Shown: positions 11,357 through 49,981 of the stretch, piece by piece | Layout of the letters: the number at the start of each line of letters is the position of its first letter | Numbering within the stretch: the stretch's first letter is position 1 | NCBI GenBank assembly: GCA_951406725.2 | Contig: OX597816.1 | Coordinates: forward strand, 98,890,001-98,954,000 | Length of the DNA: 64,000 nucleotides | Direction of reading: 5' to 3' | DNA from: Octopus vulgaris | Taxonomy: Eukaryota | Notes under the pieces: model-generated | Told to the model about the DNA's origin: nothing | What the model saw: the letters and a program-made list of their open reading frames with translations, nothing else | Databases searched by the model: none | Translations under genes and position numbers: made by a program

Positions 11357-11452
11357 GGAGTAAACACATAAATGTGAAACAAGGTGGAAAAAAGAGTACT
11401 CAAATACCAGTGGTAGAGTAATATGCTTTATTTTAAGCAGCAGAAAATTCAA

Positions 11453-11502
11453 CAAAATCTGTTACTCTGAGTTTCTCGTTGCCGTTCATCAGACAGTTTT
11501 TG
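11453..11502 (-). ncRNA. Type I hammerhead ribozyme motif (left-arm copy)
   Basis: Reverse complement: CAAAAACUGU-CUGAUGA-ACGGCAACGA-GAAA-CUCAGAG-UA|ACAGAUUUUG. Confidence 0.8.
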
Positions 11503-12504
11503 CTAGAATGGAACATATATATTAATTCAATCTATACTCTTACAAACGCTACACCTTTAAAAAGAAATGGACTTGTTTGATTGGCCCTTTAGAAAAAACG
11601 GTCAATCTTCGAGCGATAAACAAAAAGGTCAAAAATATATGTATATATATATAAAAACTTATAAAAATTATAAAATCCGCGGAAAATACCGAGGAAAAAA
11701 CCTGTTGCCGTTAATGAAGACAGTACAAATTAATGCATAGAAATTAAACCTGTTATAAATACTGCAATACATATTTATATTAAAATCCACATATATATAT
11801 CAACATACACAAAAGGATGCGCGTAAACGCCATACATACATATACAGACGTATGAATATGAATCTAAATTATACACATAAAAGCATGTGTACATATATTC
11901 ACGCAAACCGTCTCGCACGCAAGCTAAAATTCATCTATGTAGCAATTCTCATATACTGAGCAAGGAGGGGGAACGAAAGAAAGGGAAAGAGAGAAAAAGG
12001 AACGGAGGAGGGGTGGAGAAAAACTTGTAGCGATGTTATTTGGCATCTATAGAGGCCAGTATACATACACAAGTTTGAATTGATACATATACATACCGTC
12101 GTGTATATGTGTGCTTAAGCACAAGCATACTTTCACTTACACATACACAGATACGCATGCTTACAAATACATATGCTTTGCTATACACAAACTTATATAA
12201 ACATTCTAAATTTGACAACATTGCTTTTTTATAAAAAAACATTGCTTTTAAAAAATGGGTGCATTAATAAAAATATATACGAAAGACCTATAAAATAAAA
12301 TATAACATCCTATTTTGGGTCATTTATAAATAATCAAGGTAATATAAATAATCAAGGTAATCTTATGCAATACAATAACATGAAAACAAAGTTTGTAGGT
12401 TTTTCCTAATATATATGTAGAAATAATAAGACTTTGCTATAGGTCCGTTGTAGCGCTCAAGAGTCAAAATCAAAATCAAAAAATCAAAATACAAAATATA
12501 TACT

Positions 12505-13383
12505 CTATCCATATGGTATATTTATATTCGACATTTTAAATTTAGCCTTGTGCCTACATAAGTTCATTAATTCACTTCTTTGATTCAAAGAATTATTGTC
12601 TTTGAATAATATGTGCATTTTTTCTAATAAGCAAAGCCTGCACTTGAAATTATATTTGTAAGCTCCATGCCTGTATGGTGCCGCCCTGTCCAGAATGCTC
12701 CATGTCACGTTGAAAGGTGGGGTTTCCTTTTCTTTTAGTTCCCAGACATATTTTGCTAGGCTGGTTTTCTTTCTATTCTCTGGGTATTTAAAAGAATTCT
12801 TATGAGAATAAAATCTTGTTTTAAATGAATTTTCTGAAGCCCCTGTGTATGTCTTGTATTCCGATGAGCCTTCCACTTGCACCTTGGCTCTATAAACTAC
12901 TCCTTTCACTAGACATTTCCCTTCTAACGGACAGGAGCTTTCGTTTTTGCAATTACATTTCTTAATGGGCTCGGCACCATGTCTAATCTCAATTAGCTTC
13001 CTATTATGTTGGCTAATGTAAGAGGCGAAATTTCTGCAACAAGAATAGCTAACCTTCAGGGTTCTTCTATTAAATATTCTGTAGAATTTATGACCCTGCC
13101 TAAAATGCTTAGAGACTAATCTCAAAAATTCCTTACCTATATTAGTCTTTACGGCCAAATTGAAAGCCGGGTTGAACCACAAAACTTTCCTAGTCCTAGT
13201 TCTTCGTGCAGCATTATTATTAGCATTAAGCTGGTTGAACTGGATCTTCTCCGAGAATCCACTATTCTTTAATGCGCTATCGTAATAAGGTGCAGCATTA
13301 TGGAATGCTGCCTCGTCCGAAGAAATTGAAGATATTCTTCTACCTACATTGCTGACTAAGTTAATAAGGATAACTATGAGCAT
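12505..13383 (-). CDS. PLE ORF C-terminal part (thumb end, CxC linker, GIY-YIG endonuclease), inverted copy, 292 aa
   Basis: Identical to the C-terminal ~289 aa of the + strand ORF; no stops. Confidence 0.85.
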   Translation of the reverse strand: MLIVILINLVSNVGRRISSISSDEAAFHNAAPYYDSALKNSGFSEKIQFNQLNANNNAARRTRTRKVLWFNPAFNLAVKTNIGKEFLRLVSKHFRQGHKFYRIFNRRTLKVSYSCCRNFASYISQHNRKLIEIRHGAEPIKKCNCKNESSCPLEGKCLVKGVVYRAKVQVEGSSEYKTYTGASENSFKTRFYSHKNSFKYPENRKKTSLAKYVWELKEKETPPFNVTWSILDRAAPYRHGAYKYNFKCRLCLLEKMHILFKDNNSLNQRSELMNLCRHKAKFKMSNINIPYG

Positions 13384-14464
13384 ACATAATTCAAACGGCC
13401 ATGAATCAGATAGACTTAGGAAGGACCTTATAGCTTTCTTTCAAAGGATGGGCTTACGGATTACGATAGATACTAACCTGAATAGTGTAGATTTTTTAGA
13501 CGTAAATTTTAATGTAAGATCGGATAGATTTAAACCTTTCCGTAAGCCCAATGAAAAGCTATCGTATATTAGCAAAGATTCGAACCATCCACCAGTTATC
13601 CTTATTAACTTAGTCAGCAATGTAGGTAGAAGAATATCTTCAATTTCTTCGGACGAGGCAGCATTCCATAATGCTGCACCTTATTACGATAGCGCATTAA
13701 AGAATAGTGGATTCTCGGAGAAGATCCAGTTCAACCAGCTTAATGCTAATAATAATGCTGCACGAAGAACTAGGACTAGGAAAGTTTTGTGGTTCAACCC
13801 GGCTTTCAATTTGGCCGTAAAGACTAATATAGGTAAGGAATTTTTGAGATTAGTCTCTAAGCATTTTAGGCAGGGTCATAAATTCTACAGAATATTTAAT
13901 AGAAGAACCCTGAAGGTTAGCTATTCTTGTTGCAGAAATTTCGCCTCTTACATTAGCCAACATAATAGGAAGCTAATTGAGATTAGACATGGTGCCGAGC
14001 CCATTAAGAAATGTAATTGCAAAAACGAAAGCTCCTGTCCGTTAGAAGGGAAATGTCTAGTGAAAGGAGTAGTTTATAGAGCCAAGGTGCAAGTGGAAGG
14101 CTCATCGGAATACAAGACATACACAGGGGCTTCAGAAAATTCATTTAAAACAAGATTTTATTCTCATAAGAATTCTTTTAAATACCCAGAGAATAGAAAG
14201 AAAACCAGCCTAGCAAAATATGTCTGGGAACTAAAAGAAAAGGAAACCCCACCTTTCAACGTGACATGGAGCATTCTGGACAGGGCGGCACCATACAGGC
14301 ATGGAGCTTACAAATATAATTTCAAGTGCAGGCTTTGCTTATTAGAAAAAATGCACATATTATTCAAAGACAATAATTCTTTGAATCAAAGAAGTGAATT
14401 AATGAACTTATGTAGGCACAAGGCTAAATTTAAAATGTCGAATATAAATATACCATATGGATAG
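13376..14464 (+). CDS. 5'-truncated PLE ORF (RT motifs 6-7 and thumb, CxCx5C linker, GIY-YIG endonuclease), 362 aa from the ATG
   Basis: VDFLDVNF...FRKP...SNHPP (PLE RT end), CNCKNESSCPLEGKC, GVVYRA...YTGASE..FKTRFYSH (GIY-YIG-like) and C-terminal CRLC...RSELMNLCRH. The catalytic YxDD motif is absent. Confidence 0.9.
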   Translation: MSIHNSNGHESDRLRKDLIAFFQRMGLRITIDTNLNSVDFLDVNFNVRSDRFKPFRKPNEKLSYISKDSNHPPVILINLVSNVGRRISSISSDEAAFHNAAPYYDSALKNSGFSEKIQFNQLNANNNAARRTRTRKVLWFNPAFNLAVKTNIGKEFLRLVSKHFRQGHKFYRIFNRRTLKVSYSCCRNFASYISQHNRKLIEIRHGAEPIKKCNCKNESSCPLEGKCLVKGVVYRAKVQVEGSSEYKTYTGASENSFKTRFYSHKNSFKYPENRKKTSLAKYVWELKEKETPPFNVTWSILDRAAPYRHGAYKYNFKCRLCLLEKMHILFKDNNSLNQRSELMNLCRHKAKFKMSNINIPYG

Positions 14465-15469
14465 AGTATATATTTTGTATTTTGATTTTTTGATTTTGAT
14501 TTTGACTCTTGAGCGCTACAACGGACCTATAGCAAAGTCTTATTATTTCTACATATATATTAGGAAAAACCTACAAACTTTGTTTTCATGTTATTGTATT
14601 GCATAAGATTACCTTGATTATTTATATTACCTTGATTATTTATAAATGACCCAAAATAGGATGTTATATTTTATTTTATAGGTCTTTCGTATATATTTTT
14701 ATTAATGCACCCATTTTTTAAAAGCAATGTTTTTTTATAAAAAAAGCAATGTTGTCAAATTTAGAATGTTTATATAAGTTTGTGTATAGCAAAGCATATG
14801 TATTTGTAAGCATGCGTATCTGTGTATGTGTAAGTGAAAGTATGCTTGTGCTTAAGCACACATATACACGACGGTATGTATATGTATCAATTCAAACTTG
14901 TGTATGTATACTGGCCTCTATAGATGCCAAATAACATCGCTACAAGTTTTTTCTCCACCCCTCCTCCGTTCCTTTTTCTCTCTTTCCCTTTCTTTCGTTC
15001 CCCCTCCTTGCTTCAGTATATGAGAATTGCTACATAGATGAATTTTAGCTTGCGTGCGAGACGGTTTGCGTGAATATATGTACACATGCTTTTATGTGTA
15101 TAATTTAGATTCATATTCATACGTCTGTATATGTATGTATGGCGTTTACGCGCATCCTTTTGTGTATGTTGATATATATATGTGGATTTTAATATAAATA
15201 TGTATTGCAGTATTTATAACAGGTTTAATTTCTATGCATTAATTTGTACTGTCTTCATTAACGGCAACAGGTTTTTTCCTCGGTATTTTCCGCGGATTTT
15301 ATAATTTTTATAAGTTTTTATATATATATACATATATTTTTGACCTTTTTGTTTATCGCTCGAAGATTGACCGTTTTTTCTAAAGGGCCAATCAAACAAG
15401 TCCATTTCTTTTTAAAGGTGTAGCGTTTGTAAGAGTATAGATTGAATTAATATATATGTTCCATTCTAG

Positions 15470-15519
15470 CAAAAACTGTCTGATGAACGGCAACGAGAAA
15501 CTCAGAGTAACAGATTTTG
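15470..15519 (+). ncRNA. Type I hammerhead ribozyme motif (right-arm copy)
   Basis: Core CTGATGA (15480-15486) and GAAA (15497-15500); stem II CG-GCAA-CG; stem III ACTC-A-GAGT; predicted cleavage after GUA (15509); stem I CAAAA-A-CTGT pairs with ACAG-A-TTTTG. Confidence 0.82.
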
Positions 15520-15545
15520 TTGAATTTTCTGCTGCTTAAAATAAA

Positions 15546-15585
<40 letters not shown>

Positions 15586-25671: not shown

Positions 25672-26042
25672 CAAATTAATTAACAGAGTTTCAAGTAGTG
25701 TTGCAATACGACCGTTTCAAGCGACTCCATTTAATTGAACAATGCAATCATTACTACATCAATTTAAATACAACGCTATCTTCAGCTTCACAAATAGGAT
25801 TTTCAACAGACAAGATATATTAATATAATTTTTCTTAAATATTTTAACAGAACAAGAAGATAGAAGACGTCCATATTGCAACTATTGTAGCAAGAATAGC
25901 TAAGAGAACAGATAACAATGCGAGGAACAGTGCTAGGAATATTAATGCAGTATATGGGGATCCGACTATTCGGATTTTTCTTTCCTCGGTCGAGTTCAGA
26001 ATTATTTTGAAACACATATCTACATAAGTATATACACATATG

Positions 26043-28399: not shown

Positions 28400-28790
28400 A
28401 TATTTATCGATACTATACACATAGATGGACATGTCCAAAAATATAGAAAAGCACTACATAAAACAAAACTTAGAATTAAATTGTAGAGATCCCTGCAGCT
28501 CAGTCAAGTTACTAAAATATAAATCATACCCATACTTTACATTGTTAGCTCCTGTAGAAAACTTCAAAACTGGAATCGTAGTGTACCACACGGGAAATCA
28601 ATATATGGGAAATCGATATATGGACACGACAACAAATTATATAAGAAGAACGGCCCGCAGTATAGGTGAAAGGACTGCAGAACATTTGCGAGAATACAAT
28701 GAAAAGAAGCAAGCATCCATACTTTATAAACATGCAGTGCAGAAAGAACAAATCAATAAATATGGCAACACTAAAAGAAAGAAGTAACAA
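28400..28790 (+). pseudogene. Decayed GIY-YIG endonuclease fragment, probably from a PLE
   Basis: GIVVYH...NYIRRTARSIGERTAEH...SILYKHA resembles VVY...YIGxTxRxLxxRxxEH...SAIxxH. Confidence 0.55.
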
Positions 28791-43223: not shown

Positions 43224-44647
43224 TGTGGGCAATTATGGAGTGAATTTTAGGGCTTATAAATCTAATAATCTTCTATCCTTCCTTAATACCGGTTCCCATA
43301 TGCTGCTCATATCTACACTCGGTCTACTTAGAATATTGTTGTGTCCTAGCATATGTGCTGCTTCTTTTAGCTCGCGTATTTTCTAGTGGTGTTCTCTGTC
43401 TATTATTTTAACTTCATCCCACAGGGGGAGGTACTCTCCATTTTTCCATACATGATCAGCGATACCCGATTTGTCAATATTACCTCGTGTCACAGCTTTG
43501 CGATGTTCGTCTACCCTTATTTTAAGGGAGCGGCATGTTTCGTCTTCGAAGAACCTACCACAGTTGCATAGGATGGAGTACACTCAGTCTTTGGTCATAT
43601 TCTTTTCTATTGGTGGTTTTACTGGAAGGAGATATTTGTGAAGTGTTTTATTACTCATGAATACTCTCCTGATGTCACATGGGGCGCATATCTTTTGTAT
43701 CTTTTCGGAGAAGCCTTTCAGACAGACTGCAGATAGTTTATTGGCCTCATCCTCTCTCTTCTTCATAATTGGAGTGGGTAATATAATATTGGGGTAGTTG
43801 TTGCTTAACAGATCGTTATTGAGCTCATCATTTAGTAAAGGTCGGCTTGCGGTGTACGGATGTCCTGAATCCATACTTGGTGCGTGTTGTTAATACGTCC
43901 AGGAATGCTAGCTGATTGCCTTTTTCTTTTTCCATTGTGAACTGTATTGATGGTTTTATTGAGTTTACATGATCTAACAGCACTCGGATATCGTCCTGGT
44001 GAGGCCAGAGTACAAAGGTGTCTTCAACATATCGTAGCCATAGTGTTGGTTTTAGTGGTGTTGATACTAAAGTCAAATTCTCAAAGTATTCCATTGTATA
44101 TATTGGCTATTAACGGTGATAATGGCGAACCCATAGCTAAACCCTCCTCAAATCGATATATATCAGTTTCCATACTGAAGTAGGTAGTTTCTACACAGAA
44201 GGTCAACATTTCCATCAAGTTTCTAATTGGTATACTAGTGCGTTCTTTTGGATAGGTGTCTGTCAATAGTTTTTCTTTTGTCTCCGATAGTGCTTCGCCA
44301 GTTGGGGCTTTGGTGAACAGGTTTATCACATCTATACTCACCATCAGGCTGGTTTCAATGTGAGTATTCTTGATCAATTCTGTAGAGTGGGTGGAATTCT
44401 TCACGTACGATGTTGACTTTGTCAACATCATTTTTCTACATTTTCTATCCCTTTTTCTTCGTTGCTCAATTCTCTCATCTTTCATTCTCATCTTTTTGTT
44501 TCCACATCGCTAATACTTCTCAAATATCACTTCCTTCAAACTGTTCATTCTCCTTAACTTAGCGTTACTTCTTTTAGCATAGTACCCCCTCTCACTATCC
44601 TACTAATGTTTTACCCTCTTATCTCCCTCTTTCTCTCACTCTCTTTC

Positions 44648-45895: not shown

Positions 45896-45914
45896 CTCAC
45901 CACAAACCCGTGAA

Positions 45915-46099
45915 AGTAAACACATAAATGTGAAACAAGGTGGAAAAAAGAGTACTCAAATACCAGTGGTAGAGTAATATGCTTTATTTTAAGCAGCAGA
46001 AAATTCAACAAAATCTGTTACTCTGAGTTTGGTCTGATGAACGGCAACGAGAAACTCAGAGTAACAGATTTTGTTGAATTTTCTGCTGCTTAAAATAAA

Positions 46100-46100
<1 letters not shown>
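45915..46100. mobile_element. Miniature inverted derivative of the 11355-15546 PLE family
   Basis: Tail 45915-45981 is identical to 11359-11425. 49-bp perfect inverted arms (45982-46030 and 46052-46100) enclose a 21-bp spacer holding CTGATGA. It ends at the same AAATAAAG|(TA)n junction. Confidence 0.92.
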
Positions 46101-46134
<34 letters not shown>

Positions 46135-46142
<8 letters not shown>

Positions 46143-46584
46143 AGTGTATTTTTACCTTGTTAACAATTAACACGGAAAAATAAATAAATAGTTACCAGGG
46201 CAGCAAAAATCTCACAAGTAAAGGTGTTGTAACTCCTTGTTTATAAAGGTAGAAACTTCGTGTTTACGTTGAATATTTTGAATAATATGAATAAAAAAAA
46301 TTGAGTTAACGCAGGTGTAATCAAATATTTTTACTTTCGACACATGTTTCGAAAATTCCACTGATACTATTCAAAAGAATAAATGGTATAAACAATGCAA
46401 ACTTTTTTTTTTTTTGCTAAAATGTCTTATTGACGAGTTTCGTTTTTTTCACTTTCCTGAGGAGAAGATTGCATTGTATATACCATTTATTCTTTTGAAT
46501 AGTATCAGTGTAATTTCCGAATCATGTATCGAAACTAAGAATATTTGATTACACCTGCGTTAACTCCATTTTTTTATTCATATA
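46135..46584. mobile_element. Second miniature inverted PLE-like terminus with a long stem II hammerhead
   Basis: ~116-bp diverged inverted arms (46285-46400 and 46469-46584), a ~150-bp extension on the left only, and (TA)n on both sides. Confidence 0.7.
46451..46536 (+). ncRNA. Hammerhead-like motif with a ~55-nt stem II (decayed; intact 3' core retained in the opposite arm)
   Basis: ACUUUC-CUGAGGA-[long hairpin 46464-46518]-GAAU-CAUGU-AUC|GAAACU. The left arm (46333-46350, minus strand) reads GAAAC-AUGU-GUC|GAAAGU, restoring GAAA, GUC and a 6-bp stem I. Confidence 0.65.
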
Positions 46585-46609
46585 TATATATATATTATCG
46601 TTTAACTTT

Positions 46610-47030
46610 CACGGGTTTGAGCCAGCGGCCTCAGCCATACTGATTCACCTTGGACGTTGCCGCTCTTCTCTGTACATCTTGCCCCGATGTGGGTTCATCC
46701 GGGATTGCAAGTGAAAAAAAATGTCTAGACGTTTTTGAAGATTTCTATGTCCGTACCTCGCAGATCCCTGATGTCCTGTGGTAGGGCTTTAAAGAACTGT
46801 GGTCCCTTAAATCCAAACCTACTACAATATTGTGTTCGTATCCTCGATGAAGAAGATCGGCACTTTGATACTCTGTAGTGCCGTCCAGTTCAGGGATTGT
46901 TGTAGCTTTCTATTCCGAAGCTTTGAGTTATTTTCCATATGTATAGCACTGCATATCTCTCACGTCTCATCTCCGGGAGTAGAGTCCCAATTCCTTTAAC
47001 CTCTCCCAGAAGCCCTTATGTTTTACTGAG
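46610..47030 (-). pseudogene. CR1-like LINE 3' fragment
   Basis: FWERLKELGLYSRR, FGIESYNNP.TGRH, FGFKGPQFF and IPDEP motifs. Confidence 0.75.
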
Positions 47031-47086
47031 TCTAGCATATATATATATACATACACACTCACACACACACACAAACACACACATAC

Positions 47087-49333: not shown

Positions 49334-49981
49334 TCAGATGAATATGGTACTTAAGTTGAGGCACCAGAATTTAGTACGGTATTATCCATACAATTTCAAA
49401 GTAAGATGTTTAAAATCAAATAGACAAAGAACATGCTGTCGCACTCCAGTTTAGAAGATGCTGAATTTTCAAGAAGATATACATTGTTACAGTCTCTGTC
49501 CGTTACTGATTTTTTTTTGTTTTTATGGGTCAGTTTTAATTTATAGACTAGTTTATCAAATCCCTTGTATATCTAATGCTGAGAGAACAGATGGCTGTAT
49601 GTGTTAGGGGTAGGGCTGAGGGACCAGACAGACATCGGACTCATAAAAATGAAGATTTATTAGAAGCAATATCCCTTTATCCCTTTACTAGTTTCAGTCA
49701 CTGGACTGAGGTCATTCTGGAGCACCACTTTGGAGGTTTGGTAAAGGAAAACCTAAACGAAGATGTTAGCTGATAATCAAGGGGTTCGTTTGTCTATCTC
49801 CCTAACTTCTTGGAGGTTTTAGGTATTGTGTTCATCTCTTCTAATTTAAATTCTATGTCTTTGTGCAGCTGAAGATTGCTCTGCATTTTAAATTGATGTA
49901 ATGATTGCCTTGTTCAATTAAATGGAGTTGTATGAAACGATCGTACTGCATTACCTCTGGATATCTTTCTTGCTTATTTTG

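Follow-up and report, generated by a model that had tools for sequence, protein, structure and literature searches.

We found that the insertion at positions 46101-46595 of the window (the whole 64-kb stretch of DNA that was analysed) very probably arose as a single event. It consists of two opposed, 5'-truncated 3' ends of a likely Penelope-like element (PLE), and it belongs to an abundant family with a predicted type I hammerhead ribozyme whose stem II is 55 nt long. The element itself behaves like a PLE 3' end and probably is one. This parentage rests on the architecture, because no reverse transcriptase (RT) or endonuclease open reading frame (ORF) was reached: none with an RT or GIY-YIG endonuclease of this family was found in the window, and only 30 upstream letters of the contigs are shown. 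The architecture of the insertion was already known. The new points are a long stem II in an animal, a 150-nt tail, and a common variant of the hammerhead core, with C instead of U at position 4 (U4C).

Anatomy of the insertion

The window is animal DNA that is rich in AT and in microsatellites; its repeats would fit a cephalopod, most probably an octopus. The anatomy can be read directly from the window, and repeat analysis and self-comparison confirmed the layout that was originally predicted: a (TA)n run, an extension of about 150 bp on one side, a 116-bp inverted arm, a sense arm, and an end at ATAT. The features are (with the strand, where there is one):

46101-46134: (TA)17 target microsatellite, common to the adjacent mini-copy of another PLE family
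46135-46284, minus strand: one-sided extension or "tail" of 150 nt, in which the unit continues beyond its own short end
46285-46400, minus strand: inverted 5'-truncated arm of 116 bp, from self-comparison of the window
46401-46416: inversion junction in a T tract, likely a microhomology join (other copies of the family are joined elsewhere)
46410-46450, plus strand: family sequence upstream of the ribozyme (41 bp), from X4 contig 19 and from loose ends before 46410
46451-46456, plus strand: 5' strand of stem I
46457-46463, plus strand: core CUGAGGA
46464-46518, plus strand: stem II region of 55 nt, with a 7-bp basal helix and a 41-nt imperfect hairpin
46519-46536, plus strand: GAA, stem III and its loop (46522-46529), C17 (46530, with the predicted cut 3' of it), and the 3' strand of stem I (46531-46536)
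46537-46583, plus strand: 3' segment up to the short end, with the ATAT microhomology last
46580-46595: (AT)8 target microsatellite

The arms at 46294-46404 and 46465-46575 are 92% complementary across 111 nt. If one indel is allowed, then 46285-46400 (116 bp) matches 46469-46583. The ATAT at the end of the element (46583) is also part of the right microsatellite. What had been described as a spacer between the arms turned out to belong to the family: it is the sequence that precedes the ribozyme, as seen in X4 contig 19.

The window copy is a dead relic, and neither arm alone is an intact ribozyme. The inverted arm starts within the 5' strand of stem II and does not include CUGANGA; its GAAAC-AUGU-GUC is intact, as is the 3' strand of stem I. 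In the right arm, nothing is truncated, but the substitutions A15.1>U and G16.2>A are present and one pair is broken in each of stems I and II (within 46519-46536, the broken positions are 46522, 46528, and 46535). No ORF of at least 20 amino acids is present in the element, and there is no second copy of it within the 64-kb window. An RNA that reads through the whole element is predicted to fold into one long arm-to-arm hairpin (-172.9 kcal/mol).

An abundant family in sequencing runs

Of 24 sequencing runs listed, 20 contain the stretch, at 45-62% of its words and across five organism labels and ten studies. We describe the family from the contigs of four runs (X2, X3, X4, and X5), which were aligned to the stretch at 80% likeness. 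There are 1,959 family contigs in X2, 1,994 in X3, and 1,453 in X5. Their summed depth, which is not the same as copy number, reaches 1e5-6e5, versus about 7-100 for single long contigs. Together, the contig counts and the depth suggest that the family has hundreds to thousands of copies. The tail (46135-46284) is covered at depths similar to those of the ribozyme part.

The family had been proposed to be an older one. The case for this is weak: in its left arm and tail, the window copy departs from the family majority at just 2 of 270 places, and 1,114 of the 1,959 contigs from X2 are at least 95% alike. The right arm has seven letters that are off the family form (46478-46539), and six of these lie within 29 nt over the 3' core of the ribozyme (p about 3e-4 for the cluster, as compared to only 2 of 270 nt differing on the left). 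The window's letters at 46517, 46522, 46535, and 46539 are absent from all four of the aligned runs. These four letters are either private mutations or assembly errors.

The original prediction combined the two arms of the window copy into one hammerhead. This reconstruction is real: X4 contig 19 spans 46410-46574 with no gaps and with seven letters that differ from the window, and since every one of these is the left-arm letter, the reconstructed hammerhead exists on one molecule. (The contig is evidence of sequence, not of expression; that X4 is RNA is a guess.) The core, CUGANGA ... GAAA ... UH, is complete in this contig and incomplete in the window's own copy, and the pairing of stem I is predicted for the contig as well.

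Predicted fold and chance expectation

In the centroid fold of the contig form, a 6-bp stem I (pair probabilities of 0.6-0.83) and the stem II region (0.71-1.0) are both predicted. Stem II has 55 nt in this form, which agrees with the length of about 55 nt that was first proposed. Its base consists of the G10.1-C11.1 closing pair and six more pairs (7 bp), and these are followed by the 41-nt imperfect hairpin. Compared to shuffled sequences, the stem II hairpin is unusually stable (z of -3.85 for the family form; z of -4.12 and 0 of 200 shuffles for the window's letters). For the whole 86-nt motif, the advantage in stability is modest (z of -1.5). Stem III has just 2 bp and a 4-nt loop and is not favoured in the monomer (P = 0.03). 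It is self-complementary, and its duplex with a second copy is predicted to have an energy of -6.0 kcal/mol.

We scanned for both cores together with a stem I of at least 4 bp, and 100 shuffles of the 64-kb window served as the null. There were 0.01 matches per shuffled window, three in the real window, and one on the contig form. The contigs, the fold, and this chance control support the claim of a separate PLE-type family with a long-stem-II type I hammerhead.

Searches of other collections returned no relatives. Gapped core patterns matched 53 and 11 loci in public metagenome and viral collections; we ruled these out as relatives because 0 of the 64 have a stem I of at least 4 bp, and they serve as another null. 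The exact-motif scan had no matches in metagenome contigs or in viral contigs. In genome contigs, it had one match, versus 1.08 expected by chance, and the homology around this match ends within 22 nt. An Rfam scan gave no hammerhead among the best 150 of 156 matches (E up to 5), and the short-stem hammerheads at 11492 and 15480 (see below) are also missing from the matches listed.

Core variants and signs for or against activity

In the family, C replaces U4 (46458) at 43% of the depth in X2, 75% in X3, and 60% in X5, and there is also an A variant at 46461 (N7). Apart from N7, none of the other core positions and neither strand of stem I has a variant at 5% of depth or above, within the bias of placement between the two arms. 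According to the available portion of one report, U4C considerably lowers activity in vitro, yet viroid variants that carry it are still infectious (PMC3088659).

Within stem II, one G.U pair at the base becomes G-C in a minor variant (2-8% of depth); this change is one-sided. If three minor stem II variants are combined, the hairpin becomes slightly weaker (-12.6 versus -14.6 kcal/mol, where the linkage between the letters is not given). No two-sided covariation in the 55-nt stem II was demonstrable from the run variants.

Adding the 41 nt upstream of the ribozyme opens the predicted stem I (P = 0.002). We considered an upstream switch that would act against the ribozyme and dropped it: among 500 shuffled upstream sequences, 401 open stem I too and 33 pair equally well. 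The segment 46426-46442 looks like the antisense of the hammerhead's 3' half and is predicted to pair with the 3' core (P = 0.5-0.7). Pairing of this type is equalled by 31 of 2,000 random 41-mers from the window. This segment is possibly a fossil inversion junction.

The motif might be a fossil: the PLE origin would be right, no amplifying subfamily would still cut, and the long hairpin would be a neutral insertion in loop II. We take this possibility seriously while thinking it somewhat improbable, and it is compatible with the architectural part of our preferred explanation. A lost ribozyme would account for U4C at 43-75% of depth and for an upstream sequence that is predicted to open stem I, and an anole PLE inserted without needing cleavage, so far as the accessible text of that study describes it (PMC11167929). 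It would not lead us to expect that the rest of the core and both strands of stem I lack variants at 5% or more (apart from N7), nor that the core would be intact in a second family of the window, whose stem II has 58 nt. The infectivity of the U4C viroid variants also speaks against it.

Variable junctions among copies

We found 36 joints in the family contigs, of which 15 are listed. In eleven of the 15, an inverted part meets a sense part, and no two of these inversion junctions use the same pair of places; another is an internal deletion, and in the other three, the unit passes from one arm to the other. A separate table of joints has eight further inversion junctions. (Many of the joints have fewer than 30 letters on one side, aligned at 80% likeness.) TA runs occur just before 46136 in 15 loose ends from X2 and 19 from X3, and TA is also seen in the loose ends from X5. 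The variable inversion junctions and the TA flanks indicate that the copies are paired, variably truncated units in TA runs, without fixed termini. Longer copies extend further upstream, as shown by loose ends before 46410 and by X4 contig 19, which has 189 extra letters.

Two other contigs from X4 are unusual. In contig 21 (aligned at 46412-46445), the upstream segment is joined straight to sequence that resembles the 3' segment, apparently minus a ribozyme of about 100 nt. Contig 18 (aligned at 46321-46353) is a diverged relative that has kept the 3' core; the 3' strand of its stem II is different, but pairing with the 5' strand of the family would still be possible.

Another explanation is that the family has no autonomous members and consists of a retrozyme-like RNA, which would be cut by its hammerhead from tandem arrays, circularised, and inserted by PLE enzymes, so that the window copy would be a truncated offshoot. 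Such an RNA would be expected to be abundant and to have no ORF of at least 20 amino acids, as is the case here, and retrozymes have type I hammerheads and are proposed to descend from PLEs, according to the portions of the retrozyme literature at hand. The window copy, with its head-to-head arms and its tail, does not fit, and neither does the presence of U4C in much of the family. Furthermore, no return from head to tail is seen among the 15 listed joints of 36, where the upstream end of the unit lies outside the aligned stretch. We consider this explanation unlikely, and because no head-to-tail repeat was seen in the window copy or among the listed joints, the description of the family as retrozyme-like finds no support.

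Finally, a terminal-inverted-repeat DNA transposon (MITE) or a TA-inserting foldback element, with a hammerhead-like sequence by chance, would be short, non-coding, and high in copy number, with inverted arms and TA flanks, but it is very improbable, since the variable junctions already largely refute it, the arms do not form symmetric ends (there are 150 bp beyond the left one), the unit runs on upstream in longer copies, and the motif is far above chance.

Other elements in the window

A coding PLE at about 11359-15551 has the same layout as the element at 46135-46584. Its inverted arms (11421-13375 and 13594-15551) are 1,958 bp long and 99.8% identical, its tail is 62 nt, and it has short-stem hammerheads at 11492 (minus strand) and 15480 (plus strand). 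This PLE is young. Its ORF at 13289-14464 encodes a partial RT and an endonuclease-like region and, by eye, resembles Hydra-clade proteins; Pfam found no domain in this ORF. A mini-copy of the coding PLE at 45915-46100 abuts the element and has the left TA run in common with it.

In a third family, the type I core is intact, stem I has 6 bp, stem III is palindromic, and stem II has 58-60 nt. One copy lies at 49864-49950 (plus strand; motif at 49869, with a 58-nt stem II region) and another at about 25700-25795 (minus strand; near 25790), and no kinship to the other families is apparent. The (TA)n end is about 38 nt past the predicted cut. Between the two copies, the first pair of stem II is flipped from U-A to A-U, a two-sided change. 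The long hairpin of this family is not stable relative to shuffles (z of -0.74). We make no claim of homology among the three hammerhead families: in one of six comparisons, the best score was matched by 9 of 300 shuffles.

Several fragments lie near the element or elsewhere in the window. A broken LINE 3' end (46595-47040, minus strand), which we take to be CR1-like, meets the right TA run, and a 15-nt match to the end of this LINE borders the left mini-element at 45903-45917. Degraded pieces that resemble a PLE reverse transcriptase or GIY-YIG domain lie at 43584-44509 (minus strand) and 28425-28787 (plus strand); the former has a weak match to RVT_1 (E = 0.006).

Comparison to known hammerheads and PLEs

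The motif resembles the hammerheads of animal PLEs in its type I topology, its CUGANGA and GAAA cores, the G10.1-C11.1 pair, the 7-bp basal helix II, the short and self-complementary stem III, the site just before the 3' end, and the (TA)n targets. Pairing of stem III with a second copy has been described for PLE motifs in the text at hand of two reports (PMC4209133, PMC6765202). One difference is the stem II region, which has 55 nt here; among the 26 animal rows in File S2 of Craig et al. 2021 (PMC8557442, with a list for the Hydra clade), the longest has about 26 nt, within the part of that file that was available. U4C being common and the lack of any ORF found in the family also set it apart.

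The original prediction held that PLE hammerheads typically have a tiny stem II. This is inexact. In the accessible text of Cervera and de la Pena 2014 (PMC4209133), on the pseudo-LTR hammerheads of type I in animal PLEs, helix II has 7-8 bp and a short loop. In the available part of File S2, by our own count, the stem II regions of two PLE-X1 hammerheads from Selaginella have 53 and 48 nt (PMC8557442), and these two rows are marked "deviates from canonical structure." The likeness to Selaginella PLE-X1 is drawn from the length of stem II; unlike the family described here, PLE-X1 is from a plant, lacks an endonuclease, and is specific to 28S rDNA. The suggestion that standard searches could miss the motif holds up: the published min-HHR descriptor, as given in the portion of the paper at hand, allows a stem II of 3-7 bp and a loop of 3-10 nt (PMC4209133), so a motif with a 55-nt stem II would be missed.

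Typical PLE insertions, as far as the accessible text of Craig et al. 2021 (PMC8557442) describes them, are inverted truncated copies with tails of 30-40 bp and a bias toward (TA)n. Like the insertions described in the available parts of Craig et al. and Frangieh et al., the element has an inverted 5'-truncated copy, a one-sided tail, an AT-rich target, and two 3' end points. Its tail differs in length: with 150 nt, it is four to five times as long as the 30-40 bp of the published cases at hand, and the neighbouring family has 62 nt.

The family is also similar to the non-LTR retrozymes of animals, which are non-coding and abundant, have a type I hammerhead, and are likely moved by PLE enzymes, according to the accessible portions of two sources (Cervera and de la Pena 2020, PMC7229834; Li et al. 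2026, preprint 10.64898/2026.07.22.740005). In those portions, the retrozymes are head-to-tail tandem repeats that give rise to circular RNAs, whereas the window copy is head-to-head.

Literature searches turned up neither this family nor any animal PLE with a 55-nt stem II, although repeat databases may already contain the family. In the available part of the supplement of PMC8557442, the exact words of the element's motifs are absent from the Naiad, Chlamys, and Hydra consensus families (words that are broken across line ends could be missed), and the Octopus Naiad 3' ends differ from the element by eye. The idea that "half cores" of Octopus Naiad are long-stem-II hammerheads found no support: in the two ends that were examined in this part of the supplement, GAAAC is upstream of CTGATGA.

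A proposed route of insertion

We return to the explanation that we prefer, which is a pair of truncated PLE 3' ends from one insertion event. The anatomy, the abundance, the varying junctions, and the intact motif on a single contig are observed; we infer the enzyme, the priming sites, the dimer, and any cleavage. On the model of the anole element (Frangieh et al. 2024), a TA run would be nicked on both strands by a PLE protein with RT and GIY-YIG activities. Synthesis of cDNA would start at two internal sites on the RNA, one at the ATAT that is 53 nt past the predicted cut and a second 150 nt further on, and the tail would be the stretch between these two sites. Both cDNAs would stop early and be joined head to head in the T tract, which would give the one-tailed inverted pair. 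The ribozyme may work weakly in the parent RNA, either as a dimer via the self-complementary stem III or with help from a protein, and insertion probably does not depend on cutting.

The anole PLE offers a precedent: in the accessible text of the report, cDNA is made from two internal start sites at an AT-rich target, the hammerhead cuts only with protein, and cleavage is dispensable for insertion (PMC11167929). If cleavage is not needed, then a U4C subfamily would be able to spread.

More tentatively, hammerheads with a 55-60-nt stem II may be common and overlooked in the PLEs of this animal group, as a class that escapes the published descriptors. The long arm could be a handle for a protein that lets U4C subfamilies amplify, alongside the 150-nt spacing of the start sites. 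The basis for this idea, which we think is rather doubtful, is that two unrelated long-stem-II families lie within one 64-kb window.

Implications

The pattern of insertion is known and the window copy is a relic. The finding bears on the role of PLE hammerheads, which is debated: they may process RNA, act in dependence on a protein, or simply ride along. It also means that whole families are overlooked when animal hammerheads are counted with descriptors. An abundant family that comes in U4 and C4 forms, and whose stem II is long and whose tail has 150 nt, lends itself to testing whether cleavage matters to the spread of these elements and whether the length of stem II matters.
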